Source: Candidatus Omnitrophota bacterium
Lineage (GTDB): Bacteria > Omnitrophota > Gorgyraeia > Zapsychrales > Fredricksoniimonadaceae
NCBI GenBank assembly: GCA_903944345.1
Contig: CAJARJ010000014.1
Coordinates: 990-64,989, forward strand
Direction: 5' to 3'
DNA: 64,000 nucleotides
The notes below the pieces were generated by a model, which searched no databases, was not told the origin of the DNA, and saw only the letters and a list, made by a program, of their open reading frames with translations. Shown in pieces: positions 2,897 to 20,482 of this stretch. Position 1 is the stretch's first letter. Each line of letters starts with the position of its first letter. The position numbers and the translations under genes were made by a program.

Positions 2897-4315
2897 ATGG
2901 CTTACCCGAAACCCTTAATCTCTGCAGTTGCCCTCATAGGCTGTTTAAGCGTGTCTTTGACTGCCTCGGGGGCTACTCCATCAATGGACCCTCTGGTTCT
3001 GCAGGATGAGCTTTTCTTCTGCCAGCAGGAAACTGTAAAAATCAGGGAAGATCTTGCCTTCAAGGAAAAGGAAATCCTCAAACTGCTCAGCGAAAGAGAC
3101 ATGTTCAGCCTGCGCGCCAACACCCTTCTGAAAAAAGATGCCGTCTCCAGTCTTTTTCTCAACGAATACGCCTCGAACATCAAGGCTCTTTCCTCCGAAA
3201 AAGAAACTGTCAAATCTCAACTTGCCAGGATCATTCGTGAAAAAGATGACCAAAATATTGAAATACGCCGCCTTAAACAAAAGCTTGCCCAAGTCAAACC
3301 TGCAGCACTCAAGGCAGCCTCGACCGTAGCTCAGGCCAAGATCGAACGAGTCCGCTTCGGTGCCGCCAGAACAATCGAGTCCCTGCGTTTTGAAGCTGAA
3401 AAATCTCATCTGACAGTTCTCGACGAAATGGACGAACTCAAAGAAGCTATCGACAAAAAAGACCTGATCATTAACAAAAAAGAACAGGCCATTTCAAAGA
3501 TATCATCAGAAGCAGTTGCAAAAACCGAAATTGAACGCATTCGTTACGGTGCGGCCAAAACAATCGAAGCTGTCCGCTTTGACGCTGAGAAAGCCCGCCA
3601 GGCGCTGGTCAATGAAATAGACCGGCTGAAGCGCTCTCTGGACGAGAAAAATCTGGAGTTCACCAGAATGGCCAGCGAATGCGAAACCCGGTCAACCACA
3701 CTGCAGAAAGAACTTGCCACACGAAAGATGCCTGCAACAGAAAGAAGCAATGCCCTTACCCAACAAATAGCCGAACTCAACAGCGCCCTTTTAAAAACCC
3801 AGGAAGAACTCAAAAACAAAACAAATCTGGCCGCCACAGCTGCTCGCGAACAGGAACGGCTTGTGTCCCTCCTTAATGAAGAGAAGAACTCCAAACAATC
3901 CGTAGAGAAAACAATTCTCCAACTGCAAAAACAAGCCGGCGACTCGGACGCTCTTTTTCAGCAGAAACTGAAAACAGCAACAGACCCCCTGACGAAGAAA
4001 CTTGAGACGGCAGAAAAAGAACTTAAAAAATCAAAAGAAGAAAACCTGAAATTATCAGCCGCCAAAGCTGACTCGGTGGTGGAATTTTCCAAACAGCTCG
4101 CCGAACTCAAACAAGACCTGTCCGAACAAAAATCAGCCACCAAGGAGCAACTAAAGCTTATTGACACTCTGAAACAGGAAGCCGCCAAGGCAGGGACACA
4201 ACATAAAACTCTTCTGGAAGAAAAAGCAGCACTGGAAAAAACAATCACCCGCTTGACGGCTGAACTAAAAAGCAAAAATACACCCGCAAAAACAGACGCA
4301 CCATCCGGCAAATAA
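2897..4315 (+). CDS. Exported coiled-coil protein, probable lipoprotein (lipobox-like ALIGC), with internal sequence repeats
   Basis: N-terminus MAYPKPLISAVALIGC, followed by about 440 aa of heptad-rich K/E/L sequence. The unit K.EIER.R.GAA.TIE..RF.AEK occurs twice (around 3331-3400 and 3517-3590). Confidence 0.6.
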   Translation: MAYPKPLISAVALIGCLSVSLTASGATPSMDPLVLQDELFFCQQETVKIREDLAFKEKEILKLLSERDMFSLRANTLLKKDAVSSLFLNEYASNIKALSSEKETVKSQLARIIREKDDQNIEIRRLKQKLAQVKPAALKAASTVAQAKIERVRFGAARTIESLRFEAEKSHLTVLDEMDELKEAIDKKDLIINKKEQAISKISSEAVAKTEIERIRYGAAKTIEAVRFDAEKARQALVNEIDRLKRSLDEKNLEFTRMASECETRSTTLQKELATRKMPATERSNALTQQIAELNSALLKTQEELKNKTNLAATAAREQERLVSLLNEEKNSKQSVEKTILQLQKQAGDSDALFQQKLKTATDPLTKKLETAEKELKKSKEENLKLSAAKADSVVEFSKQLAELKQDLSEQKSATKEQLKLIDTLKQEAAKAGTQHKTLLEEKAALEKTITRLTAELKSKNTPAKTDAPSGK

Positions 4316-4350: not shown

Positions 4351-6348
4351 CTATTCATAACGTAAAGCTTCGACCGGATTTAATCCGGCAGCCTGCATGG
4401 CGGGTCGCAGCCCGAATACAATACCAACAAGTACCGAAAAAGACGTAGCCATTACCACAGACACCCAGGAAACTTTGGTCGTCCAACCGGCCAAAACAGA
4501 CAACAAAAATGCCGCTGAAACCCCCAGCAGCACTCCGGCCAGACCACCAGCGACTGTCATCAGTATGGATTCGATCAAAAATTGCGCTGTAATATCTGAA
4601 CGCCGAGCCCCTATAGCTTTTCTCAGTCCGATCTCCCTGGTTCTTTCCGTCACGGAAACCAGCATAATATTCATGATTCCGATCCCGCCGACCAAAAGAG
4701 AAATGGCCGCAATCGATCCCAATAAAACTGTCATCGTCTGGGTCGTGGCCTCAAGTGTCTGACGAAGTTCAGCCATATTCCTGATCTGAAAAGCTTCTTC
4801 ATTCCCGCTACTCAAGTTCTGACGCCTGATGATCAGCGATTTCAAGTCCTGCTGAACCTGCTCCATAAAAACCGGATCCGTCACCTCAACATCAATCGAG
4901 TCAACATACTGCTTGCCCAACAACCGGTTCATAGCCGTCGAAATCGGGACCAGAACCGTATCATCCTCATCCCGGAAACCTGAAGCTCCCTTCTCTGGCA
5001 ATACTCCAATAACCCGAAATCCTGTCCGGTTTATCCTGATGGATCGCCCGACAGGATCCTCATTGATAAACAGGGCGCTGGCTACAGTCTGTCCGATGAC
5101 AGCCACCCGTTCGCGCTGCAGAAGCTCTTTTTCATCAAAAAAACGCCCCAAAACAGGAACCGCCGAACGCATCAAGGGATACTCAACTCCAACGCCCTGC
5201 ACCTCGGAATTCCAATTTTTATCACCATACACCAGTTGCACCCGTCCTCTGACTGAAGGAGAAACCCGGCTGACATTATTTACAATTTTCATGGCTGCAC
5301 TGTCTTGCAAGGTAAATCGGGTAACCGTCCCTGCCTCAAGTGCCACGCCGTGCATCTGCGAAGACCCGGGGCGCACCATCAAAAGATTGGATCCCAAAGA
5401 AGAAAGCCGCTGCTCAATCGAGTCCCGGGCTCCCTGCCCCAGAGCCAGCATGGCAATAACAGCAGCCACTCCAATCAATATCCCTAACATGGACAACAAA
5501 GAACGTAAACGGTTGGCCAATATCGCATCCAGCGATTGACGAACATGATCCGAAAACTCGGCGCGGCCAAAAACTGACCCGGTGCGAGTCAAAACCTGGG
5601 AAATACTCCTGTTCTCACGAAGAACGACCGGCTTGAAATCCTTTTTTCGCTCATCCGAAATGATACGACCATCCCGCATCGTAATAATCCGGCCGGCATG
5701 CTCTGCAACCTCAAGCTCATGCGTGACCATAACAATGGTCTTGCCCTGTTGATTAAGCTGACGCAAAATCGCCATAATTTCCGCTTCACTTCTGGTGTCC
5801 AGATTTCCGGTAGGTTCATCTGCAAAAATAATCAAAGGCTCGTTGACCAGCGAACGGGCAATAGCAACCCGCTGGCGTTCCCCTCCGGACAGTTCTCCAG
5901 GAAGATGCCGGGCACGAGCCGCAAGTCCGACTGCGGACAATTTCTCCGCCGCCAGTCGTCTGTCAGCCTGCGGTCCGGCATACGTCAAGGGCAAAGCAAC
6001 ATTGGCCAAAGCGCTGATACGGGGTAAAAGATGAAACTGCTGAAAAACAAAACCGGCAATCTGATTACGTAAAACCGCCATCTGATCGTCGTCCAAACCG
6101 CTTATATCTGTACCATTGAGCAAATATGCCCCTGTATCAGGACGGTCAAAAAAACCAAGAATATGCAGCATCGTGGATTTACCGGAACCGGATGCCCCCA
6201 TGACCGCCACAAATTCTCCGGCTTCGATCCGCAAAGAAACATTATCCAGCGCCCGCACTTCCTCGCTCCCCATCCGATATGCCCTTGAAACATTTCTTAA
6301 CTCAATCATGGCATCCTTATCTGGCCGCACGCGGTCTGGATGGAACAA
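4351..6348 (-). CDS. macB: MacB-type ABC transporter (ATPase fused to FtsX-like permease); alternative start at 6309 (MIELRNV)
   Basis: Walker A GASGSGKST, signature LSGGERQRVAIAR and Walker B IIFADEPTGNLD. This is followed by a periplasmic domain and four C-terminal TM helices typical of MacB/LolCE. Confidence 0.85.
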   Translation of the reverse strand: MFHPDRVRPDKDAMIELRNVSRAYRMGSEEVRALDNVSLRIEAGEFVAVMGASGSGKSTMLHILGFFDRPDTGAYLLNGTDISGLDDDQMAVLRNQIAGFVFQQFHLLPRISALANVALPLTYAGPQADRRLAAEKLSAVGLAARARHLPGELSGGERQRVAIARSLVNEPLIIFADEPTGNLDTRSEAEIMAILRQLNQQGKTIVMVTHELEVAEHAGRIITMRDGRIISDERKKDFKPVVLRENRSISQVLTRTGSVFGRAEFSDHVRQSLDAILANRLRSLLSMLGILIGVAAVIAMLALGQGARDSIEQRLSSLGSNLLMVRPGSSQMHGVALEAGTVTRFTLQDSAAMKIVNNVSRVSPSVRGRVQLVYGDKNWNSEVQGVGVEYPLMRSAVPVLGRFFDEKELLQRERVAVIGQTVASALFINEDPVGRSIRINRTGFRVIGVLPEKGASGFRDEDDTVLVPISTAMNRLLGKQYVDSIDVEVTDPVFMEQVQQDLKSLIIRRQNLSSGNEEAFQIRNMAELRQTLEATTQTMTVLLGSIAAISLLVGGIGIMNIMLVSVTERTREIGLRKAIGARRSDITAQFLIESILMTVAGGLAGVLLGVSAAFLLSVLAGWTTKVSWVSVVMATSFSVLVGIVFGLRPAMQAAGLNPVEALRYE

Positions 6349-7273
6349 ATGGACTGCTTGTGCCCTTCACTTTTCTGGAGGCCAACGACAAACTTTTTCT
6401 GATGACAACATCCCCGGCCTCAAGTCCGCCCAAAACTTCGGTATTCTCCTCGTCTGAAATTCCGGTCAAGATCTCCTGTTTTTGCGGTTTTGTTTCTCCT
6501 GCACGAAAAACTGTCACAAAAGAACTCCCGTCCTGTCGGTCGATATACTCCGAAGGAACCAACAAGACATTCTCTCTCAGATCAGAAATAATCCGGACAT
6601 CAGCACTCATGCCGGAACGAAACACCTGCGGGATCTCGTCAGGGATAAGGTCAACGTAGTAGACAGTAACATTACTGACAACCTTTGATTCGTAATAGAC
6701 ATGCTCGACCGTTGCCCGCACAACCGTCTCTGGATACGCATCCAGCGTGATGCTAGCTCTTTGCCCGGTCTGCACCCTGCCGATATCTGTTTCATCCACC
6801 TGAGCCTGGACAATCAAGCGATCGGAAAGGACAACAACAGCATCAGCCGCCGTGACAACCTGTCCCGGATTTACCGCCTTGACAATGACATCCCCGTCAA
6901 TAGGCGCCAACAAGGGAATCGGCTTGTATGCATCTTCCCATTTACGCCGGGAATCTTCCCCCTGAAGGTAAGCTGCATCCAGTAACGCTGCCCGGTCAGT
7001 CGAACTCATAAACGCCAGAACGTCTCCGGTTTTTACCACCGCCCCTTCTTGAACAAGAATTTGTTCAATACGACCGCTAATCGGAGGCTTGACCTCAAGA
7101 CGATTTCTGGGTTTGACCGTACCCGTGGCTGTTATGGCTGACTCCAGCCTCCCCAGCGACAAACGCGTTCTTTTCTCGGCAGGATCCGGAGCAGTGTTGC
7201 GACGAAAGACCAAAAACAAAACACACAAGAGAGCCACCGGCACTATGACGAAAACAATGATCTTCTTAATCAT
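6317..7273 (-). CDS. macA: HlyD-family membrane-fusion (periplasmic adaptor) protein, MacA-like; ORF-track start is 7315
   Basis: Single N-terminal TM helix (IIVFVIVPVALLCVLFLVF) followed by biotinyl/lipoyl-like and beta-barrel segments typical of HlyD/MacA. It overlaps or abuts the macB start. Confidence 0.8.
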   Translation of the reverse strand: MIKKIIVFVIVPVALLCVLFLVFRRNTAPDPAEKRTRLSLGRLESAITATGTVKPRNRLEVKPPISGRIEQILVQEGAVVKTGDVLAFMSSTDRAALLDAAYLQGEDSRRKWEDAYKPIPLLAPIDGDVIVKAVNPGQVVTAADAVVVLSDRLIVQAQVDETDIGRVQTGQRASITLDAYPETVVRATVEHVYYESKVVSNVTVYYVDLIPDEIPQVFRSGMSADVRIISDLRENVLLVPSEYIDRQDGSSFVTVFRAGETKPQKQEILTGISDEENTEVLGGLEAGDVVIRKSLSLASRKVKGTSSPFVPSRPRAAR

Positions 7274-8534
7274 GCAAAGTCTCTCCTTTCGCCTGTTGCC
7301 AGGCAGCCTGCGCAATCAGGGCATTCATCCTGGCCTGCAAAAGCGTTTTCTGATCACGAACCAGATCATCCTCAATAATCGACCACTCGTTGAAAGATGC
7401 CTGTCCTGCCGTATACTGTGCTCCAACAATGCTGGAACGCTGGGTGGATGCCTCCAAAAACTTGATCTGAACATCCACCAGATCAAGACTATCCTGCCAA
7501 CTGGTCCAAGCCTGGGCAAGTGTCAATAAAAGCCCGTTTTTTTCAACACGATACTCTGCTTCGGCCTGCTGTAATCCTGCCTTGGCCCGATCCAAAGCCG
7601 CTTTCCGAGCCCCACCCTGAAATAAAGGGAACGAGAGTGTCAACCCGGAAGACCAGTCACTTGTATCAGCTGGCCAATCCGCACCTGTTTTCCCTGCGCC
7701 GGCATCAAAAAAAATCTGCGGCCAGAAGTTCGAACGCGCAGACTTAAGCGCATATCTTGCCGATTCTCTTTTCGCCAAAGAATATTTCAATACTGGCGTA
7801 CTATCAATCAATAGCTCAAAATCAGGCCGCTGCCGGTCAGCCGATCCGCTGTCCAGTTGGCCCTGCGCTCTTATCGATTTGAACTGATCCCGGCCCAAAG
7901 CCCGGGATAAACGAATCTGCGCCAACTCAACATTACGCAAAGCCTGTTCATACTCGCAAGCAGCTCTGGCCGTATTAGCACGAGCCGTCAGCAGGGAGCC
8001 TTTGTGCTCTCTTCCAACCTGGTATTGCAGATTAACGATATCCTCATTCTGCTGTCGTCTGGCAAGAATACCATCTGTCACTCCCAAAAACTCCTGTGCG
8101 TTCAAAAGCTCCACAAAGGCCGTCCGCAAATTAAGCCGGACATTGGCGGAAACAACCAGATAATGATATTCCGCCGCAGATATTTCTTTTCGCTGCGCTG
8201 CAGCGTCATTGGCTGTCTTAAACCCGTCAAACAACAGCTGTCTGGCAGATAACCGGTAAGAATGTTCTTCATTACGGGATCGTCCGGACACTTTACCGAT
8301 AGATGACCCCGCAGAGGCGCTCAACTGGGGAAGCCGGGTTGAGTTAACCTCTTTCAACCCGGACTTTATTCCATCGAGAACTGCCTGCGCAGCAACAAGA
8401 TCTGGATGGTTCTTCCGGGCCTCCGCAAGACAACTCTCCCAGCTCAACTCACCCTCGGCCCGGGCCAGTCCTGTACAAATCAACAAACCAAGAACCGGCA
8501 AGCCCCACCATGATATTCTGATCAAACGGCTCAT
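7266..8534 (-). CDS. TolC-like outer-membrane efflux protein (OMF)
   Basis: Signal peptide MSRLIRISWWGLPVLGLLICTGLARA, followed by two OEP-type repeats with helical/barrel alternation. The stop overlaps the macA start. Confidence 0.8.
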   Translation of the reverse strand: MSRLIRISWWGLPVLGLLICTGLARAEGELSWESCLAEARKNHPDLVAAQAVLDGIKSGLKEVNSTRLPQLSASAGSSIGKVSGRSRNEEHSYRLSARQLLFDGFKTANDAAAQRKEISAAEYHYLVVSANVRLNLRTAFVELLNAQEFLGVTDGILARRQQNEDIVNLQYQVGREHKGSLLTARANTARAACEYEQALRNVELAQIRLSRALGRDQFKSIRAQGQLDSGSADRQRPDFELLIDSTPVLKYSLAKRESARYALKSARSNFWPQIFFDAGAGKTGADWPADTSDWSSGLTLSFPLFQGGARKAALDRAKAGLQQAEAEYRVEKNGLLLTLAQAWTSWQDSLDLVDVQIKFLEASTQRSSIVGAQYTAGQASFNEWSIIEDDLVRDQKTLLQARMNALIAQAAWQQAKGETLHD

Positions 8535-9052
8535 TCCATATCCTCAGGAGGCATATCTCCGGAAAACTTTCCGTGTTTTTTGCCTTTTAGACCATTTTTA
8601 CGCATCTGATCATGTTTCTGACGAAAATGCCGGCCTTTTTCATCAAATTTCATAAATTGTTCGACTGTCAGCACCTTGCGAATTTCAAGAATAAAGGCCA
8701 ATCGTTGATCTTCCTGCTGATTTTTCAGCCCCTTAAGTTCATTATGAATACGCGTCACTTCCTGCTCATTGAGAGTTGCTGACTGCAGGGCGGCTGTCAA
8801 CTGCTGCCGTTTTTCATCCATAAGCGTCTTTAGATTCTCCCTGGCTTTTTCACTATTCTGGCGGATCTCCTTCAACTGGGTCTTTTGTTCTTCCGACAAC
8901 CCCAACTCTTCAAAAATCTTCTCCGGACCTTGCCCTCGCTGATGCCACTGGCGAGCCTCTCTGCCTTCGGACACTTCCTGGGCCGCAACCAAACTTGAAC
9001 CACTCAAAAGAAAAACTAATCCCGTAATGATCATAAGAAATTTTGTCTTCAT
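8531..9052 (-). CDS. CpxP/Spy/ZraP-family periplasmic LTXXQ-motif protein
   Basis: Signal peptide, then LSEEQKTQLKEIRQ and LTVEQFMKF (LTXXQ motifs), a helical K/E/Q-rich sequence and a basic tail. Confidence 0.65.
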   Translation of the reverse strand: MKTKFLMIITGLVFLLSGSSLVAAQEVSEGREARQWHQRGQGPEKIFEELGLSEEQKTQLKEIRQNSEKARENLKTLMDEKRQQLTAALQSATLNEQEVTRIHNELKGLKNQQEDQRLAFILEIRKVLTVEQFMKFDEKGRHFRQKHDQMRKNGLKGKKHGKFSGDMPPEDME

Positions 9053-9070
9053 TTTCCTGCCTCCATAGTT

Positions 9071-9553
9071 TTATAAAAAGTACTGCTCAATAAGTGTCCC
9101 GTAATCCGTTGCCCCGTTATCCCCCTCAATCAGCTCTGCCAGTACAAGAACAGATTGATCCTTATTCTCCTGCTCAACCAAAACCTGCGGCCCCGTAGTA
9201 ACATGAAGCAGCGAAAACACACCCAAAAGAACCACCAGCGACCACGCCAAGGCAGGCGCCGGAACCAAAAAACATTTCCGGATACCCATCAAGAAATCGC
9301 CTGCAATTTCCGCCAGGTCAGGAACCTGCCGTTTTTCTGTTTTCTCACGTATTCGCTGCCAGACAGATGGATCCACCGACTCGACTGGAGCTCCGACAAA
9401 AGGAGAAACAGTACGACTTTGAATCATCTCAAGAAGCTGACGGCATTCGGGACAAATCTTGAGATGCCCATCAACCAACGCCAGTCGTTCTGGTTCACAG
9501 CAGCCGTCGATATAGTCCGTCAACAAAATATCTCTTATTGTCTTACAATTCAT
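9071..9553 (-). CDS. Anti-sigma factor (zf-HC2 HxxxCxxC zinc finger plus one TM helix)
   Basis: N-terminal HLKICPECRQ motif and TM segment LVPAPALAWSLVVLLGVFSLLHV. It overlaps the upstream ECF sigma gene by 11 nt. Confidence 0.7.
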   Translation of the reverse strand: MNCKTIRDILLTDYIDGCCEPERLALVDGHLKICPECRQLLEMIQSRTVSPFVGAPVESVDPSVWQRIREKTEKRQVPDLAEIAGDFLMGIRKCFLVPAPALAWSLVVLLGVFSLLHVTTGPQVLVEQENKDQSVLVLAELIEGDNGATDYGTLIEQYFL

Positions 9554-10100
9554 CGGCCATCACCTCCTCTTTGATCCCCAGCAGTTTCTCGCGTCCGCGC
9601 TTGAGCCTCGAACGCACAACATTAATATTCACATTCAACGCCGCAGCAATCTGCTCATAAGTCAGACCTTCGATAGCGCGCAGGATCATGCAAACCCGCT
9701 GCTCGGGTGAAAGCGCGTCCAGCAATCGCCGGATCAGTCCTTCCTTATATTCTTTCTCTGCCGCCTGCGTTACTTCCGGCAAGGCCGCTCCGCTAAAAGC
9801 ATCATCATATTCAACCGTCCGGAATCTTTCCTTGCCTCTTTTACGGTAATAATTGATAGAAGTATTCACCGTAATCCGGTACAACCAGGTGCTTAAGGAA
9901 GACTCCGCACGAAACTCTTTAAGTCTGCTATGCATGGTCACAAAAACCTCCTGCACAATCTCACCGGCATCCTCACGGTTGCGCAAAATCCGCAAACTGA
10001 TGTTATACAGCTGATCCGCATACGTTCGGTAAATCTCTTCAAACGCTCCCACATCACCAGCCGCCGCCCGCTGAATCACTTCGCTGGATACATCCTTCAT
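9543..10100 (-). CDS. ECF (sigma-70 group 4, RpoE-like) sigma factor
   Basis: Region 2 (TWLYRITVNTSINYYRKR) and region 4 HTH (LTYEQIAAALNVNINVVRSRLKRGREKL). Confidence 0.85.
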   Translation of the reverse strand: MKDVSSEVIQRAAAGDVGAFEEIYRTYADQLYNISLRILRNREDAGEIVQEVFVTMHSRLKEFRAESSLSTWLYRITVNTSINYYRKRGKERFRTVEYDDAFSGAALPEVTQAAEKEYKEGLIRRLLDALSPEQRVCMILRAIEGLTYEQIAAALNVNINVVRSRLKRGREKLLGIKEEVMADEL

Positions 10101-10202
10101 TCAAACTCCTTACACCCAACCGGTTTAGGCTTGCCCGTTGAAAGACACTGGCATGCCTTTCAATTATTTAGACAAATCCTGGCAGAAAAAAGTTACGGTA
10201 AA

Positions 10203-13022
10203 ATGGAAATTTATCCTGCCACTGATACTAGCAAATATCCCCCCCGCCACCCAACACCTTCCTCTATTGTTTTCTCAGCCGGTTTCCGGCTATACTTGCT
10301 TATGTTTCCCGGCACCTTACACACATTAATACGTCTTTTTCTCTGCTTTTGCCTCGTGGCGGTTTACCACCCATTCCCTGCGAGCTCCCAGTCTCAGTCT
10401 GTTGTCATAAAACATGATCCACAAACTTTAAGCGCGGATTTCTATCCTGAACAATTAAAAGCCATAACCGTATCGCTCCAAGATCCGCTGCATTTCGACT
10501 TTTATATCGACTCAAGGAATGAAAATTCTTCTGCCTCCGATGAGCAACGGCGTTACCTAGTCCTTATAAAAGATTTCTTTACCGCACTGACTATTCCTGA
10601 GACAGACATCTGGGTTAATCTTTCCCCTTTGGAACAAAATCGTATTATTGAAGAACGATTTGGTCTGACCGATACAGGAAGAGATCTTCTGGCACAGGAT
10701 TTGCTGCTCAAACAAATCGCCTCTGCCCTGCTTTATCCGGAAGACGCCTCCGGCCGCCATTTCTGGGATGAAGTCTACCGCAGAATATGGGAAGAATACG
10801 GAACAACCGATATTCCTGTTGATATTTTTAACCGGGTCTGGATCGTTCCTGAGCAGGCTGAAGTCTATCAGGAAGGCTCCTCGGCCATAATCCTTGAAGG
10901 ACATATGAAAGTCATGCTTGAAAAAGACTATCTGGCCTCGGATCTGTCTGCCGGAATTCGTTCCCATATGCCCCGTGCGCCCGATGAAAACAGCCAGACT
11001 ATCCCTGCAGAGGCTCTGCGTGAAATCATCATTCCTCTTCTGGAGAAAGAAGTCAATGAAGGCAAGACTTTCTTCCGTCTGCGGCAAATTTACCAGGCGC
11101 TGATCCTTTCCACCTGGTACAAAAAAACAATGCGCGAATCCTTTCTTGGTAAAACCTATGCTGACCGTTCCAAAACCGGAGGTATCCGGCAAACCGATCC
11201 GGAAGACAACCAGCGCATTTACAACCGCTATGTTGAAACATACCGCAAGGGGGCCTTTAACTTCATCCGTGAAGAAATTGACAGAAACAGCGGAGAACCA
11301 ATACAACGAAAATACTTTTCCGGCGGTTTTAGTGCTGAAAATTTTTCCCAAAAAGTCATTATCCGAAAGGAGTCAGATTTCGACGCCTCCCAGCCCCCCA
11401 AGCCTGGCCCGACCAAGCGAATAAAGAAAGTCTCGACTTCACTAAGACCATCTTCTGCCGATAATCCTTATCCATTTGATGAGGAAGTCCAAAGACTATC
11501 CAACACACTAAGAAACTTGCACCAACAAATTAAAAACGAGGATCTTGTAGCCAGTGCACAAGTTCTGGGCCCCGACCAGACAACTCTCAACGCTGTTCTG
11601 ACCCAGATCAAACAGAACGCCTCTAACGCGATAGACATTGTATTATCAAATGAGGAACAAAAAAACCTGGTCATGAGTGAATTAGCCGAAAAAATAGTTA
11701 ACGGTGAGAAAACAACCCTGCAATCCCTGCTTTTTGATGGCACTCATACAACAGAAGTTCTCCGGCATCTTCTGGCGGTTACCATGCTCGCCCGCCAGGA
11801 TGCTCCCGTGCCTACCGAAGAAATTCTAAAACTCATGGGGTTACGTGCCGGATCAGTCGCAGCAACCGCTGGTGTCATTGAAAATTCTCAGGATATCTAC
11901 GAACTGGAAGATCTCGAAAACGGATTATTCGGTCTTCTTAAAACAAGACCTTCGGGGCTTAAAGAACCCGGTATCGACCACACCGCCACCCTCCATCGTT
12001 TGCGAGCAGAAGAAGGTGTTTTCCGGTCTCATTTCGATCGCCCGACCCAGAGGCCGCCCTATTTCAAAAAAATCATCCAGGATGCCCAGCGACTGCTACC
12101 GCGTGCCCAGAAAATCGTCGACGTACTGACACATTTCGCGCGCGCTGTAGATCTGCGCGTAAAAACCGGATCGAGCGCCAGCAGAAAATCCAACCTCAAG
12201 CCTCTGATGGAAATATCTGACTTTATCGGAGGACGCGCCATTTACAAAGACCTCAGCGACATGGAAACACAGATTCAGCGGCTGCTTAACAGAACCTCCA
12301 ATGACAAAGTCGATATTCTGGATGAGTGGATAGATCGCGTTAAAGAAGAACAAGATGCTCTGGAGAAAAGATTAAGCCGGTTTAAAAAGACCTCTGCCCA
12401 ATACCAGGCACTCCAGCAGGAACTGGCAGATCACAATAACAGAAGACGCAACCTGATGAACTCAAAACCGCTTATGATCGAGTTTGATAACAAGTTCATG
12501 AGCAACCGCGACTCCTACTACAGAGCCATGCAGTTTCTTTTCGCGGTGGGAACCGGAACATGGACTTTTGAACTGCAAATGAAGACATTGCCAGCGGCAA
12601 TAACACAGGACATGGAACACACATTTTACAAAAACAAAAAGAAAAACTCTCCACTACTGTCCGCGATCAGACGACACAACCGCTTGGTCAATATCATTGA
12701 ACTCATCAACTACCTTTACAGCCGTCAGGATATCAACCCAAACTGGATTCTTTTTGAAATCAACAAACACCTGCCGCCACAAGGCGAAAAAACTTCCTCC
12801 GTCGACCCGGCAGCGGTTAGCGTAGCCAGTCCCACCGGAGGTATCGATGCCCGGCATATTGAAAACAAGGTGTTTCTCAGCGGTAGCAACGATATGCCAG
12901 CGCTAATTCAGGAGTTTCAGAATACAGACTATCCGGACGGCTTTGAAGCGGAAATCCTTTCCATCCACCCGGCGGATGATCTTTCATCCGTTTTTCCTGC
13001 ACAATATCCACTCGCCAAATGA
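10203..13022 (+). CDS. Large exported hypothetical protein with a C-terminal RelA/SpoT (RSH) synthetase-like motif set (alternative start 10302)
   Basis: The ORF-track start at 9930 would overlap the sigma gene on the opposite strand, so I took ATG 10203 or 10302. Signal-peptide-like MFPGTLHTLIRLFLCFCLVAVYHPFPASS. C-terminal motifs: LRVKTGSSASRK (RxKxxxSxxxK), DFIGGR (DxxGxR), ELQMKTL (ExQxRT-like) and MEHTFYK (EHxxY). Confidence 0.6.
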   Translation: MEIYPATDTSKYPPRHPTPSSIVFSAGFRLYLLMFPGTLHTLIRLFLCFCLVAVYHPFPASSQSQSVVIKHDPQTLSADFYPEQLKAITVSLQDPLHFDFYIDSRNENSSASDEQRRYLVLIKDFFTALTIPETDIWVNLSPLEQNRIIEERFGLTDTGRDLLAQDLLLKQIASALLYPEDASGRHFWDEVYRRIWEEYGTTDIPVDIFNRVWIVPEQAEVYQEGSSAIILEGHMKVMLEKDYLASDLSAGIRSHMPRAPDENSQTIPAEALREIIIPLLEKEVNEGKTFFRLRQIYQALILSTWYKKTMRESFLGKTYADRSKTGGIRQTDPEDNQRIYNRYVETYRKGAFNFIREEIDRNSGEPIQRKYFSGGFSAENFSQKVIIRKESDFDASQPPKPGPTKRIKKVSTSLRPSSADNPYPFDEEVQRLSNTLRNLHQQIKNEDLVASAQVLGPDQTTLNAVLTQIKQNASNAIDIVLSNEEQKNLVMSELAEKIVNGEKTTLQSLLFDGTHTTEVLRHLLAVTMLARQDAPVPTEEILKLMGLRAGSVAATAGVIENSQDIYELEDLENGLFGLLKTRPSGLKEPGIDHTATLHRLRAEEGVFRSHFDRPTQRPPYFKKIIQDAQRLLPRAQKIVDVLTHFARAVDLRVKTGSSASRKSNLKPLMEISDFIGGRAIYKDLSDMETQIQRLLNRTSNDKVDILDEWIDRVKEEQDALEKRLSRFKKTSAQYQALQQELADHNNRRRNLMNSKPLMIEFDNKFMSNRDSYYRAMQFLFAVGTGTWTFELQMKTLPAAITQDMEHTFYKNKKKNSPLLSAIRRHNRLVNIIELINYLYSRQDINPNWILFEINKHLPPQGEKTSSVDPAAVSVASPTGGIDARHIENKVFLSGSNDMPALIQEFQNTDYPDGFEAEILSIHPADDLSSVFPAQYPLAK

Positions 13023-13025
13023 AGG

Positions 13026-14588
13026 CTATTCCGGCCACAGACCAAGAATCCTTTCAACACGAAACATGCGCACCGCCTGGCGCAGCTCGCAGCGTGCCAG
13101 CATACCGCAAAAAGAAGTGTCTTTGTAACTCTGATCTCCTACCCTTTGCGGCCAGACCCTGCGCCGGGAAACTTCACCGTTATTGCTGAGATACTCAATC
13201 TCCAGAGAACTTCCCCGGGCGACGGCGTCCTCGATGATCCGGACTTTCTGCTCCCGGGATAATCGCAAAGAAACCTCTGGTTGCCTGAAAGAAAGCATAA
13301 AATCCACCACCCTCCAGTCTGTAAAAACATGCGCCCTGCGAATGGGGGTTTTTAACGCTATTCCCTCCAGGGTTCTTGCCCGGCTGAGCGCCACATACGT
13401 CTGCCCGTAAGCGAATGCGCCCCGCCCCATATCAATAATCACCCGGTCAAAGGTCTTGCCCTGACTCTTGTGAATCGTCACCGCCCAGGCCAGTTTAAGC
13501 GGATATTGACGGAATGTTCCGGCAACTTCAGCATCTATCTTGCGGGCCTCCGCATCCCAGGTATAGTCAAACATATCCCAGATATTAGGCGAAACTTCCA
13601 CTTCCTCACCATTCTCCAGGCGAACTATAACCAAAGGCTCAAGCCCCGATTTCTCAATAGCCGTCACCACTCCCATACTTCCATTAACCCAGCGCCCCTG
13701 GGAGTCGTTATTAAGCAACATCACCTGCGCGCCCTGCCTGAGCATGACCTCTTCATCCGCAGGGAAAGATGACGTTTTGAACGCACCTTCAATCTCGGCC
13801 CGCAAGCTGACCGTGCGTCCGCCAAGGCCGGACAAATAACGATGATTAATCTCCAAAGCCTGGGCATTGGCCGGAACCAGAGTCACCGTAAAACCGGCCC
13901 CCTCACCCCTGAAATCGGCCCCCAAACGGGAATTTAATATCGCCAGTTGCTCCTGGCTGACTTCATTGCTGCGGATGGCATTCAACACGGCAATAAAAGA
14001 GGCATCCTTTTGCCGATAAATCTTTTCCAGTTCAACCAGCGTCAGTTGTGTCCCGGAATGCTCCAGCCCCGGTGTCATGGCTTCAGCGCTGAAGAAATAC
14101 GGACTGGCATAGCGCCCCCTGAAAAGGTCTTTCTCATGGGGCAAAACTACCGGTGGAAGCTGATACAAATCGCCGATCAAAATTAGCTTGATACCACCAA
14201 ATGGGACTTTCTTGTCCCGCCCATTTTTGCGCAAGGACCGGTCGATGCAGTCCATAAGATCCGCGCGAACCATGGACACCTCATCGATCACGATCGCATC
14301 CAGCTCCCTCACCAGTTCTCTGCGGTCAGCGGGTAACCTGCGTACTTTTTCCGGAGTTATATCCGGCTTAAACTGGAAGAACGAATGAATCGTCTGTCCG
14401 CCTACATTAACCGCAGCCACACCGGTCGGGGCGAGCACAATGATGCGTCGGGAGGTATGCTCACGAAAATACTGAAGTAATGTCGATTTTCCTGTACCAG
14501 CCTTGCCTGTAATAAAAACATGCCGACCGGGAGTTTCCATAAGATCCAGGGCTTGTTTAAAACGGTCATTAATCTCGATCTGGCTCAT
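13026..14588 (-). CDS. Pif1/RecD-family (AAA_30) helicase with C-terminal WYL domain
   Basis: Walker A GKAGTGKST and Walker B IVIDEVSMV. The C-terminal segment LEIEYLSNNGEVSRRRVWPQRV...FRVERI is WYL-like. Confidence 0.8.
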   Translation of the reverse strand: MSQIEINDRFKQALDLMETPGRHVFITGKAGTGKSTLLQYFREHTSRRIIVLAPTGVAAVNVGGQTIHSFFQFKPDITPEKVRRLPADRRELVRELDAIVIDEVSMVRADLMDCIDRSLRKNGRDKKVPFGGIKLILIGDLYQLPPVVLPHEKDLFRGRYASPYFFSAEAMTPGLEHSGTQLTLVELEKIYRQKDASFIAVLNAIRSNEVSQEQLAILNSRLGADFRGEGAGFTVTLVPANAQALEINHRYLSGLGGRTVSLRAEIEGAFKTSSFPADEEVMLRQGAQVMLLNNDSQGRWVNGSMGVVTAIEKSGLEPLVIVRLENGEEVEVSPNIWDMFDYTWDAEARKIDAEVAGTFRQYPLKLAWAVTIHKSQGKTFDRVIIDMGRGAFAYGQTYVALSRARTLEGIALKTPIRRAHVFTDWRVVDFMLSFRQPEVSLRLSREQKVRIIEDAVARGSSLEIEYLSNNGEVSRRRVWPQRVGDQSYKDTSFCGMLARCELRQAVRMFRVERILGLWPE

Positions 14589-17362: not shown

Positions 17363-18150
17363 GTTTTTCGCGCCTTCTTTTTGCCAATAACGGGTTCCCG
17401 AAAACGCAGGTCTATATAATTGATTTGGGAGAAATCAATCTCCTGATGAGACAACAGCATTTGCAAAATATTCAGCTGGGAAGAATATTTATCCAGATCA
17501 AGGTAAACATCCAGTTCCCCTTTCTGCGAATCAATCGAAGCGACAATACGAGTTTTATCCGCAACATTCAGGCTGGAAAGAGCGCTATCGAGCAGCACCG
17601 GGTTCTTTTTAAACTCCCCGATAATGGCTACCGCAGACTGGAAAACCGAATCCACAATCCGCTCCCCCGCGGCGGGACGTTGATCCTTTATGCCTTTAAC
17701 CAGAACCAAGTCTTCCGTAGCCTTGTCTGCTGGTCTGATAAGCCAGCCGTCACGATCCGCCAAAAATGTCTTGCCGGCCAACGTAACCTTGACAAAAGGA
17801 TCTCTTCTGACAGCCATCACCACAATCTGGTCAGGAAACCGGCGCAGAACCCTGATTTCGGCGAGCGACGAATGTTTTTCCCGCAGCCGGGACTCGATCT
17901 TGCGAATATCAACAGCGAAAATCCGCTGCCCCTTGATCTTTTGCAGCTCGGAGAGATCCATCTTCTGCAATTCTTCAGTCAGTACAATATCTTTAACCGC
18001 GAACACCGGAGAATTGCGCAGATAACCGGACACTCCCCAAACCAGAAAAATCCCGGTCGAAAGAATGATCAGCATTATAGCGCCGATGCGAACTCCCTCA
18101 ACGGAGGGCTGCCGCCGATCTTTCTTTCTTTTTACCATAAGCCATTTCAA
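17359..18150 (-). CDS. ftsQ: Cell division protein FtsQ/DivIB
   Basis: Basic N-terminus, one TM helix and a POTRA-containing periplasmic domain. It lies between murC-ddl and ftsA. Confidence 0.75.
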   Translation of the reverse strand: MKWLMVKRKKDRRQPSVEGVRIGAIMLIILSTGIFLVWGVSGYLRNSPVFAVKDIVLTEELQKMDLSELQKIKGQRIFAVDIRKIESRLREKHSSLAEIRVLRRFPDQIVVMAVRRDPFVKVTLAGKTFLADRDGWLIRPADKATEDLVLVKGIKDQRPAAGERIVDSVFQSAVAIIGEFKKNPVLLDSALSSLNVADKTRIVASIDSQKGELDVYLDLDKYSSQLNILQMLLSHQEIDFSQINYIDLRFREPVIGKKKARKT

Positions 18151-20482
18151 CCAGTGTCAAACAAAGCTTTTGAAAGTCCATCCCCGCTGCCATCGCCGCT
18201 TTGGGCAGAAGGCTGCTTGAAGTAAAACCGGGAATGGTATTGATCTCAAGAACATACCCGCGATAATCACTGCCCAGCAAAACATCCACCCGGCCAAAAC
18301 CTTCACAGCCAAGAGCCTTGTACGCCGCCAACGCTTCTGACTGAACCTTGAGCGCGACATCTTCCGGGATCTGGGCCGGGACAATATACCGGGTTTCCTG
18401 AGACTGATACTTGGCCTTAAAGTCATAGAAATTCTCCCCCGAGCGGATCTCAACCACCGGCAAAGGATTATTTCCGATAATGCCTACCGTCAATTCCCGT
18501 CCGCGGACAAAAGTCTGGATCAAAACTTCCGCTCCGAATTCAAAAGCCTTGCGAACACCTGAAATCAGACTTTCCCGCCCAAGAACAAGACTCACTCCGA
18601 TACTGGAACCTTCACAGGCAGGCTTGACAACAAAAGGATATTCACCAAGCGCCTGCTCGACTGCCTCGTAATCAAACGCATCCGGAGCGGGAAGAATCAA
18701 AGTCCCGGGGGTTCTGATTCCGGCAGATTCAAACAGCCGCTGGGCAACACATTTGTTAAAAGCGGCATAACTGGACGATGGCCCGCATCCATTGTAGGGG
18801 ATGTCCATTTCATCCAGAATCGATTGTATTCCGCCGTCCTCTCCAAACCTCCCGTGCAAAGCAATAAAAGCGACGTCCAGTCCTTCTCTCTTGATCCATT
18901 CTTTAACCTGATGCCGGTCTTCGGTCAATAAATCCATAGGCACAACCCGGCAACCCGCTTCGGTCAAAGCCTTGATCACCGCAGCCCCGGAACGCAGGGA
19001 AACCTCCCGTTCGGAAGATTTCCCCCCCATGATAACTCCGATCTTCCCCAACTGAGCTGCGGAAAAAGATAATGCCGTGGTTCGAGACTCGGCGGCCAGC
19101 CGTCCGAGCAACTCGTCGGAAACATGAGTAATATCTCCCGCGCCCAGAGTCAATACAAGATCCCCGGGTCTGACCTCTGCTGCCAGCCGATCGACCAGCT
19201 GCTCTTTTTTTAAATAAGAAATATCCCGTACGCCATTATTTTTCATAAGGGTAAACAGCTTCTCTGCCGAAACATCCTCAATCGGCTTTTCCCCTGCGGG
19301 ATAAATATCGGTCAAAAAGACCTTGTCTGCCAGACTAAAGGAAGCCGCAAATTCCTGCATCAGAAACTTTGTCCGGCTGTAGCGATGCGGCTGAAAAGCA
19401 ACCAGCAGTCGTTTGCGATCAAGAGTTTTGGCTGTCTGCAGTGTTGCGGCAATCTCCGTGGGATGATGCCCGTAATCATCCACGACCAGAACTCCCGCAG
19501 CTTCACCTTTACGCTGGAAGCGACGCTGGACGCCGCAGAAATCAGCCAGGGCTTCGGCAATCACCCCGGGCTGAATCTTCAGCTCATTACCGAGCGCAAC
19601 AACTGCCAGAGAATTCAAAACATTGTGCTTTCCGGGAATCCTGAGTGAAAAACGGGAAAAAAACCTGCCCCGATGGTAACAGTCATAGGAGGATCCGGAA
19701 GCGTCACACTGGATATTACCGGCTGTCCAGTCATGCCCTTCGCCAAAACCGTAAGACACCACCCGGCGTCCGCTGGCAGTGACAATCCTGGATAAATTCA
19801 GATCATCGCCACAAGCAATAATAACCCCTCCGGGAACTGTTCTTGCGGCGAAAACGGCATACGCCTCTTTAACCCCGTCAAAAGTGTGATAATGATCCAG
19901 GTGCTCCGCATCAACATTCGTGATAATCGAAAAATGCGGCGAAAAATACAAAAAAGATCCGTCACTTTCGTCAACCTCAGCCACAATATGTCGCCCCATA
20001 CCAAGACTGGCATTATAATTTCCCTGGTTGACAATGCCCCCCACAAACGTGGTTGGCTTCAGTCCGGCCTTGATCAGAAGTAATGAGGCCAATGACGAGG
20101 TTGTGGTCTTGCCGTGTGCCCCGGCCACCGTGATCCCCACCTCCTTGTTGACCAAATGCGCCAATAGCTCGGCCCGGCGCAAAACAGGAACATGCTGGCT
20201 GTGCGCATGAAACATTTCGGGATTATCCATCTTGACTGCCGAGGAATACACAACGCAATCGGCCGATCCGATATTGCGGATATCATGGCCGATATGCACC
20301 CGCGCTCCTTTTTCAGTCAACTGCCGGGTCAGGTCACTTTCTTTCAAATCCGAGCCACTGACCTGATAACCTTTGGCCAGCATTAACAAGGCAAGGTTCC
20401 CCATCCCCATCCCGCCGATACCAATAAAGTGATAATGTTTGTGGGCTTTTTTAGGCTCGCTGCGACCTTCACTCATTTTCAT
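18098..20482 (-). CDS. Fused UDP-N-acetylmuramate--L-alanine ligase / D-alanine--D-alanine ligase (MurC-Ddl)
   Basis: N-terminal MurC (HFIGIGGMGMGNLA... ...GAHGKTTT). In the same frame with no stop, Ddl follows (KIGVIMGGKSSEREVSLRSG... ...VEINTIPG). Confidence 0.85.
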   Translation of the reverse strand: MKMSEGRSEPKKAHKHYHFIGIGGMGMGNLALLMLAKGYQVSGSDLKESDLTRQLTEKGARVHIGHDIRNIGSADCVVYSSAVKMDNPEMFHAHSQHVPVLRRAELLAHLVNKEVGITVAGAHGKTTTSSLASLLLIKAGLKPTTFVGGIVNQGNYNASLGMGRHIVAEVDESDGSFLYFSPHFSIITNVDAEHLDHYHTFDGVKEAYAVFAARTVPGGVIIACGDDLNLSRIVTASGRRVVSYGFGEGHDWTAGNIQCDASGSSYDCYHRGRFFSRFSLRIPGKHNVLNSLAVVALGNELKIQPGVIAEALADFCGVQRRFQRKGEAAGVLVVDDYGHHPTEIAATLQTAKTLDRKRLLVAFQPHRYSRTKFLMQEFAASFSLADKVFLTDIYPAGEKPIEDVSAEKLFTLMKNNGVRDISYLKKEQLVDRLAAEVRPGDLVLTLGAGDITHVSDELLGRLAAESRTTALSFSAAQLGKIGVIMGGKSSEREVSLRSGAAVIKALTEAGCRVVPMDLLTEDRHQVKEWIKREGLDVAFIALHGRFGEDGGIQSILDEMDIPYNGCGPSSSYAAFNKCVAQRLFESAGIRTPGTLILPAPDAFDYEAVEQALGEYPFVVKPACEGSSIGVSLVLGRESLISGVRKAFEFGAEVLIQTFVRGRELTVGIIGNNPLPVVEIRSGENFYDFKAKYQSQETRYIVPAQIPEDVALKVQSEALAAYKALGCEGFGRVDVLLGSDYRGYVLEINTIPGFTSSSLLPKAAMAAGMDFQKLCLTLVEMAYGKKKERSAAALR

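Follow-up and report, generated by a model that had tools for sequence, protein, structure and literature searches.

What task could an RSH (RelA/SpoT-type) enzyme perform outside the cytoplasm of the cell that produces it? The question is raised by a gene in the window analyzed here, a 64,000-nucleotide stretch of contig CAJARJ010000014.1 from a Candidatus Omnitrophota bacterium, whose product (hereafter the target) has an RSH synthetase domain in its C-terminal third and the features of a Sec signal peptide at its N-terminus. An initial annotation, made from the sequence alone, had described the target as a candidate secreted, toxSAS-like effector. Our analyses led us to the reading that it is a Sec-exported, modular alarmone-synthetase-like protein of the kind known as EAS, built on a scaffold of the Omnitrophota, and we put the probability of this reading at about 0.6. 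The protein comprises, in order, a predicted cleavable signal peptide, an N-domain of ~310 aa, a variable linker followed by a helical domain, an RSH domain split by a helical hairpin, and a tail of ~55 aa that we refer to as the GGID tail. The EAS class was recognized only in 2025 and has so far been characterized in Streptomyces, Vibrio and Amycolatopsis, and the target would extend the EAS idea to the Omnitrophota, a group of uncultivated, ultra-small and possibly predatory bacteria, with an architecture unlike that of the described EAS.

A divergent RSH synthetase domain with complete catalytic motifs

The C-terminal third of the target is a real RSH synthetase domain, which is divergent but has retained the complete set of catalytic motifs. 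The four motifs that the initial annotation had listed in canonical order are all present where it had placed them, and they lie within the domain as it was recognized by profile, Pfam and Foldseek comparisons. These are the following (amino acids are numbered throughout from the ATG at position 10203): LRVKTGSSASRK (aa 651-662, nt 12153-12188), DFIGGR (aa 673-678, nt 12219-12236), ELQMKTL (aa 790-796, nt 12570-12590) and MEHTFYK (aa 804-810, nt 12612-12632). The first of them satisfies the Syn1 pattern RxKxxxSxxxK at every position (R652-V-K654-TGS-S658-ASR-K662). A search with the full-length protein identified 11 full-length orthologues at 33-80% identity, and across 12 orthologues, which are 21-26% identical in their C-terminal halves, R652, K654, K662, D673, E790, H806 and Y809 are invariant and S658, Y773, T788 and Q792 nearly so. 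Conservation of the putative catalytic Asp and Glu, which the initial annotation had named as the residues to check, is thus borne out by D673 and E790; in the remainder of Syn2 (DxxGxR), the Gly and Arg are retained in most members.

Comparison with proteins of solved structure gave a consistent picture. A family profile of aa 500-939 matched the PDB sequences of RelP (E 1.5e-8) and RelQ (E 1e-6), with Syn1/2 and Syn3-5 aligned motif on motif, such that Syn1 of the target family falls on 'sRVKSfeSivnKl' and Syn2 on 'ihDiaGvRii' of RelP. The same profile matched FaRel2 (E 1e-3), RelA and Rel more weakly and did not recover Tas1. The Pfam RelA_SpoT family, PF04607, was matched by 8 of the 12 family members at E<=0.01 (best E 5.1e-12), and an exhaustive search with a profile, covering 1.84 billion representatives, returned ~16 clusters of the orthologue group (E<1e-30), followed by ordinary RSH proteins; nine of the ten next-best of these that were scanned passed the Pfam RelA_SpoT threshold. 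When the C-terminal 390 aa alone were used as the query in a homologue search there was no match, a result that we attribute to the word prefilter of that search. The AlphaFold2 model of the C-terminal construct (pLDDT 76.6) was compared with the PDB by Foldseek, and rather than an unrelated fold, the top 50 matches were all members of the RSH family, with TM-scores up to 0.72 (Bacillus subtilis SAS2) and a probability of 1.0 for single-domain synthetases; CapRel and the structure of the exported SaEAS (8vx3) were among them. Since the PF04607 matches, the PDB profile and the Foldseek result all support it, we consider the RSH identity of the domain settled despite the sub-threshold score that the target obtains as a single protein. 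Scans against PHROGs and PADLOC gave weak coiled-coil-type or marginal matches only, including PbeC at E 5.8e-4 over Syn1-2 and the insertion described below.

The RSH domain is probably active, to judge from its residues and from the selection acting on them, and its acceptor substrate is not readable from the sequence. The ratio of non-synonymous to synonymous substitution rates (dN/dS) relative to the closest orthologue, P0002, is 0.15 overall and falls to 0.04 over Syn3-5, the lowest value of any segment. The spacing of 111 aa that separates DFIGGR from ELQMKT had been interpreted as an inserted coiled coil of about 115 aa. A helical-hairpin insertion is indeed present, but only ~50-55 aa of this spacing (aa ~700-752) are truly inserted, and the orthologue P0005 does without them. 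The two helices of the hairpin were modeled at residues 207-225 and 233-250 of the construct (aa 706-749) with a pLDDT of 81-94 per 10-residue block, and weak coiled-coil-type Pfam matches cover the insertion. In front of the synthetase domain, aa 500-640 were also modeled as helices (pLDDT 72-94, except for a low block of 58 at aa ~610-619) with conserved residues G513, L547 and R601, and no separate structural match to this region was found by Foldseek in the PDB. A degenerate hydrolase (HD) domain was considered for aa 500-640 and rejected, as there is no conserved HD motif and no structural match.

Start codon, signal peptide and scaffold family

The target gene has a single long open reading frame (ORF), which occupies the stop-to-stop frame 9930-13022 of the forward strand. 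Read from ATG 10203 it encodes 939 aa, identical in sequence to database protein P0001, and the JGI annotation of the target is 963 aa long (P0262). Both of these starts are probably too far upstream. At the locus of P0002 (L055; 80% identity), the codon equivalent to 10203 reads ATA and is closely preceded by in-frame stops, whereas the ATG at 10302 (M34) is conserved, and for this reason we prefer 10302 as the translation start. A start at M34 gives an n-region of 11 aa, in line with the family median of 10.5. P0002 itself was found to be annotated too short, without its signal peptide.

The Sec-type signal peptide reported in the initial annotation is supported, with the correction that it is typical only when read from ATG 10302 and not from 10203. 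Read in this way, the N-terminus of the target divides into n-, h- and c-regions as given in Table 1, and apart from its hydrophobic core the protein has no hydrophobic segment; no further transmembrane segments were found in the target. Of the 108 family members whose N-termini are complete, 107 have a positively charged n-region (median 10.5 aa, net charge +2). The hydrophobic core has a median length of 14 aa (range 8-18, with none reaching 19), a small-x-small-Q sequence follows the core in 89, and the median predicted cleavage position is about 32. The N-termini of the family thus have the features of signal peptides of the Sec/signal peptidase I (SPase I) type and not those of membrane anchors. 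A lipoprotein signal was also considered and ruled out, as a lipobox is lacking and the family has no conserved Cys.

The N-terminal 600 aa had been described as resembling nothing recognizable. This did not hold on wider comparison, as aa ~70-380 form a domain that is common to about 1,900 protein clusters and is the most conserved part of the target (65% mean pairwise identity among orthologues). With the full-length protein as query, 1,947 clusters (database clusters at 90% identity) were matched at E<=0.001 among 8,000 candidates scored. The N-domain was present in all of the 120 best matches, directly behind the signal peptide, with paralogues being 44-54% identical, and no relative of it was found in Pfam, NCBIfam or the PDB. 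At the opposite, extreme C-terminal end of these 120 proteins, the GGID tail was recognized in 74 by a narrow hidden Markov model (HMM) and in 108 by a GGID regular expression. The tail HMM matched aa 876-930 of the target at E 6.5e-22, and the N-domain HMM matched aa 71-379. The consensus of the tail is GGIDxNxANLxLQIKRDGxGVPLPxxxQDxxxxxxIxGFxPxIIxIxPxxxLP; the target has the variant GGIDARHIE...GFEAEILSIHP, in which G879, G880, I881, D882, R884, G913 and I918 are invariant among orthologues. The AlphaFold2 model is disordered over the tail, and none of the NCBIfam sorting-signal models matched it.

The two modules appear to belong together. In complete ORFs at the genome loci, N-domain and tail occur in the same ORF, and a search with the tail profile retrieved only fragments of 45-127 aa, the one of which that was inspected on a long contig proved to be part of an interrupted family gene (locus L058); no evidence was found in this search for a tail occurring apart from the N-domain. 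The L058 gene (3123-5336) consists of three same-frame ORFs split by two in-frame TAG codons, one of them inside the N-domain, and its middle has a weak AvrB_AvrC Pfam match. It is probably a pseudogene rather than a case of recoding, because a neighboring gene uses TAG as a true stop.

Between their shared ends, the proteins of this family, whose lengths span about 550 aa to over 2,300 aa, differ completely. Receiver domains were identified by Pfam in the middles of 6 of 45 proteins scanned, and other middles contain WD40, LysM, HEAT, TPR, methyltransferase or DnaJ domains, or in one case a NUDIX hydrolase as named by its source; most have no Pfam match. The N-domain was located at 50 loci in GTDB species genomes (L005-L054), nearly all of which are labeled Candidatus Omnitrophota or Omnitrophica, the exceptions being a few metagenome-assembled genomes labeled as uncultured Planctomycetales, Lysobacterales or 'bacterium'. 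The assignment of the window itself to this phylum was, in our analysis, an indirect one based on this distribution. More than one copy is present in several genomes, and tandem arrays are frequent (L009, L014, L028, L034, L035, L039, L052 and L053). A second scaffold-family gene was also present near two of the orthologues: directly downstream of P0005 (L002, 8612-10031; 461 aa, with a partial N-domain and a tail) and ~2 kb downstream of P0010 on the opposite strand (L004, 877-4072, reverse strand; 1,046 aa). No paralogue of the target was found within the window. These distributions suggest that the N-domain and tail form a phylum-specific scaffold with variable middles, in which the RSH domain would be the cargo of the target's orthologue group. 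We found no paper, in open-access text, on the N-domain/tail family or on an alarmone synthetase of the Omnitrophota.

Table 1. Features of the target gene and the divergent operon beside it (positions in the window)
Feature	Position	Strand	Details
Divergent operon: ECF sigma, zf-HC2 anti-sigma, LTXXQ periplasmic protein, OEP/TolC, HlyD-type adaptor, MacB-type ABC transporter	4351..10100	-	Pfam
Most likely coding sequence	10302..13022	+	906-aa precursor; ATG conservation in L055, n-region length
Sec-type signal peptide	10302..10388	+	MFPGTLHTLIR-LFLCFCLVAVY-HPFPASS/Q; predicted SPase I cleavage after S62
Omnitrophota-specific N-domain, aa 71-379	10413..11339	+	Common to about 1,900 protein clusters
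Linker with low conservation, aa 380-499	11340..11699	+	20% mean pairwise orthologue identity; dN/dS 0.22
Helical domain before synthetase domain, aa 500-640	11700..12122	+	AlphaFold2 helices; confined to orthologue group
RSH synthetase domain, first part	12123..12302	+	Syn1 aa 652-662, nt 12156-12188; Syn2 aa 673-678, nt 12219-12236
Helical-hairpin (coiled-coil-like) insertion, aa ~701-755	12303..12467	+	AlphaFold2 helices; missing in P0005
RSH synthetase domain, second part	12468..12737	+	G-loop-like YYRAMQ aa 772-777; Syn4 ELQMKT nt 12570-12587; Syn5 EHTFYK nt 12615-12632
C-terminal GGID tail, aa 876-932	12828..12998	+	Common to most N-domain proteins

Neighboring genes and the weighing of explanations

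The target gene is flanked upstream by a divergent ECF sigma gene and downstream by a convergent gene for a PIF1-WYL helicase, and Pfam assignments agree with the earlier description of an ECF-sigma/TolC-MacAB operon transcribed away from it. As had also been noted, there is no immunity gene beside the target, these two being its only flanking genes. The proposal that the MacB/TolC operon is a dedicated exporter of the target fared less well: the whole operon adjoins the orthologous gene only at the locus of P0002, the 80% identical orthologue, and is missing beside six more distant ones (P0005, P0009, P0004, P0007, P0010 and P0003). The gene for P0005 lies between QueA/TGT genes and the scaffold-family paralogue mentioned above, which is followed by MarR-OEP-AcrB genes. 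Those for P0009, P0004 and P0007 have as neighbors OmpA, a protein of 176-178 aa without assignment, an M16 peptidase and the ATPase T2SS-E, and the neighbors of P0010 and P0003 are different again. A conserved neighboring small hydrolase, which the initial annotation had suggested looking for in homologues, did not emerge, as no small neighbor of any kind is conserved across the orthologue loci. Clustering of ORFs at 53 loci of the wider family likewise gave no neighbor family present at more than four of them, the two that reached four being a histidine kinase and a response regulator. Since no neighbor recurs, neither a dedicated exporter nor an immunity gene can be inferred from context, and the comparison of loci does not point to a functional link between the ECF/MacB operon and the target.

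The window as a whole is core chromosome. It contains the dcw cluster (Mur ligases, PBP and FtsA) and encodes a MurC-Ddl fusion, LigA, FtsK and PNPase, and the reverse strand carries nearly all of these genes. GC skew is negative in all 2-kb bins (-0.07 to -0.22). The reverse strand also holds nearly all the long ORFs, and the target, as one of about four forward-strand genes, runs against the local direction; another ORF of the minority strand, at 2897-4315, encodes 472 aa with no Pfam match. The MurC-Ddl fusion (18098-20482, reverse strand) is a 794-aa protein joining a MurC-type Mur ligase to a D-Ala-D-Ala ligase inside the dcw cluster. Such fusions are also found in Chlamydiae, and this one fits an organism of the PVC group. 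The PIF1-like SF1 helicase with its C-terminal WYL domain is encoded at 13026-14588 on the reverse strand, with 3 bp between its stop codon and that of the target. In the divergent operon (Table 1), a self-contained envelope module, the LTXXQ protein is CpxP-like and the transporter is a fused ABC-MacB_PCD-FtsX protein.

In the EAS-like reading, the target would transfer the beta,gamma-pyrophosphate of ATP to the 3'-OH of a purine nucleotide, so that its product would be (p)ppGpp and/or (p)ppApp, with modification of tRNA 3'-ends being less likely. Translocation through Sec in an unfolded state would keep the enzyme out of the producer's cytoplasm, and because of this no immunity gene would be needed. 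Its site of action may be the periplasm, the cell surface, the medium or another cell, and the N-domain and tail may serve in sorting, anchoring or delivery. A role as a surface anchor would fit the same data as delivery into partner cells; we find delivery attractive since some of the paralogue cargo is of a cytoplasmic type and since the Omnitrophota have been proposed to be predatory or parasitic.

Several observations weigh against this reading. The supply of ATP and GTP outside the cytoplasm is unexplained by it, and receiver domains are odd cargo for exported proteins. The part given to the scaffold (sorting, anchoring or delivery) is conjectural, as neither a structural relative nor conserved machinery was found. 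The signal peptide was judged by rules for n-, h- and c-regions and not by a trained predictor. With regard to the enzyme, the target alone matches Pfam RelA_SpoT below threshold (E 0.0097; 16.6 bits, where the cut-off is 27) and only in part, with aa 754-813 aligned to the second half of the model. The G-loop consensus in the family is WYxAVH, but its His gives way to Gln in the target and to Asn in two members, and the Arg of Syn4 is replaced by Lys throughout the family. With these substitutions, substrate choice and even activity could differ from those of RelP and RelQ.

The enzymatic points have been counted above as reservations, and they could also be taken to indicate a catalytically dead or repurposed RSH fold that serves as a nucleotide-binding or structural module. 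This explanation would accommodate the sub-threshold Pfam score, the G-loop Gln, the large insertion that interrupts the domain and the erosion of Syn2/Syn4 positions in two members (P0011 and P0012). We nevertheless consider it very improbable, given that the residues that bind ATP and Mg and perform catalysis in RelP and RelQ are invariant across orthologues as divergent as those compared here, that purifying selection is strongest exactly over the catalytic part, and that the insertion does not fall within the elements that bear the motifs and can be dispensed with, as in P0005. Least probable of all, in our view, is that the target is a small alarmone synthetase of the cell's own stringent response, held on the cytoplasmic side of the membrane by an uncleaved N-terminal anchor. 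The substrates of RSH enzymes are cytoplasmic, the closest solved relatives by sequence are the housekeeping enzymes RelP and RelQ, and the chromosomal location is a core one, all of which would suit such a role, but the positively charged n-regions (107/108), the short cores (median 14 aa) and the conserved small-x-small-Q argue for an N-in orientation with translocation of the C-terminal bulk of the protein and cleavage.

The remaining alternatives concern delivery. According to the initial annotation, an exported RSH protein is most simply explained as a delivered toxin, which here, after Sec export, would be moved across the outer membrane by the MacB/HlyD/OEP system and would poison a competitor or prey by overproduction of alarmones. 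The features of export on which this was based are present, but export alone does not imply a delivered toxin, because Sec-exported EAS without immunity genes are known (PMC12691689). The operon adjoins and diverges from the gene both here and in the 80% identical orthologue, and downstream of the gene for P0005 there is likewise an efflux operon with OEP, though of the MarR-OEP-AcrB type. MacB pumps can take periplasmic proteins as substrates; a folded protein of 100 kDa would be an unusually large one. Set against the toxicity of EAS enzymes in a cytoplasm (PMC12691689), which also speaks for a toxin, are the absence of MacB, HlyD or OEP neighbors at five other orthologue loci, the lack of a recurrent neighbor at the 53 wider-family loci, the operon's own envelope-stress module (ECF/anti-sigma/LTXXQ), which is typical of efflux or stress systems, and the finding of neither a cell-entry domain nor an immunity gene. 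Taken together, we regard delivery by this route as improbable. A bolder version, which we hold to be possible though doubtful, is that the N-domain and GGID tail constitute a two-part address label for a phylum-wide Omnitrophota pathway of export, delivery or surface display, and that the target is an alarmone-synthetase cargo injected into host, prey or other partner cells, where it would disrupt nucleotide pools and derail nucleotide metabolism. It would account for paralogue cargo that seems to require a cytoplasm (CheY-like receivers, NUDIX, methyltransferases and the weak AvrB_AvrC-like match) and for a very large, often tandem repertoire of paralogues, as in effector families; it also suits the proposal that Omnitrophota are predators or parasites with Tad/T2SS-like systems (PMC10066038; bioRxiv 10.1101/2023.11.21.568195) and the T2SS-E ATPase gene found four genes downstream at three orthologue loci. 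Yet no secretion machinery is consistently linked, most middles have no recognizable domain, the target gene lies in a core region by the dcw cluster and not on an island, and a scaffold for surface anchoring would explain these features just as well.

Comparison with known systems

With the RSH toxins linked to secretion systems and the toxSAS modules (Tas1/Apk1, Apk2, CapRel and FaRel2) the target shares the RSH synthetase fold, and also the notion that such an enzyme can act beyond its producer's cytoplasm. The initial annotation had called the target toxSAS-like; the closest solved sequences are RelP and RelQ and not Tas1, CapRel or FaRel. Unlike the toxSAS (FaRel, CapRel and PhRel), the target has a signal peptide and no co-oriented antitoxin neighbor, and on these grounds it is not a toxSAS toxin-antitoxin module. 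Nor is it an RSH effector of the type linked to type VI or type VII secretion systems or to phages (Tas1/Apk1, LXG-EAS and MuF-Apk2), as judged from the lack of PAAR/Rhs, LXG/WXG or MuF domains and of an immunity gene; no PAAR/Rhs, LXG/WXG, MuF, XopAD or DUF4157 domain was detected in the target at E<=10 with Pfam and NCBIfam.

The scaffold family of about 1,900 clusters is apparently undescribed, and we consider it the most interesting lead from this work. Its function, once worked out, could explain how Omnitrophota interact with other cells, and its RSH member would provide an enzymatically tractable reporter for the pathway. By analogy, the scaffold may be likened to the cargo proteins of the type IX secretion system with their C-terminal domain (CTD), to surface proteins with SLH domains and to polymorphic toxins, all of which combine a Sec signal peptide and one or more conserved terminal modules with variable parts and many paralogues. 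The scaffold was not found to resemble any of these modules in sequence or structure, and it is conserved at both ends, a pairing that the T9SS CTD, SLH and polymorphic toxin families are not known to show.

The best profile and structure matches of the target are RelP/SAS2 (YwaC) and RelQ/SAS1 (YjbM), and its five synthetase motifs all align with theirs. Both are homotetrameric enzymes of the cytoplasm, ~210 aa in length. The target differs from them in its low identity (10-16% over structural alignments), in the Lys and Gln that replace the Syn4 Arg and the G-loop His, and in its insertion. The Sec-dependent EAS, namely SaEAS of Streptomyces albidoflavus and VpEAS of Vibrio parahaemolyticus (Ahmad et al., mBio 2025), lack immunity genes, synthesize (p)ppGpp/(p)ppApp beyond the cytoplasm and prove toxic when they stay within it (PMC12691689); the survey in which they were described does not mention Omnitrophota. 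Like them, the target has a SYNTH domain behind a Sec signal peptide at an isolated locus without an immunity gene, and by analogy the logic that export prevents self-intoxication would fit it as well. The EAS enzymes are single-domain proteins of ~200 aa, whereas the target, at ~900 aa, has in addition the N-domain, the helical domain, the hairpin insertion and the C-terminal tail, and SaEAS (8vx3) is a weak structural match to it (E 4.9e-3, rank 36) that the sequence profile did not find. The closest known class thus appears to depend on the property compared, being the EAS by presumed function and RelP and RelQ by sequence and structure.

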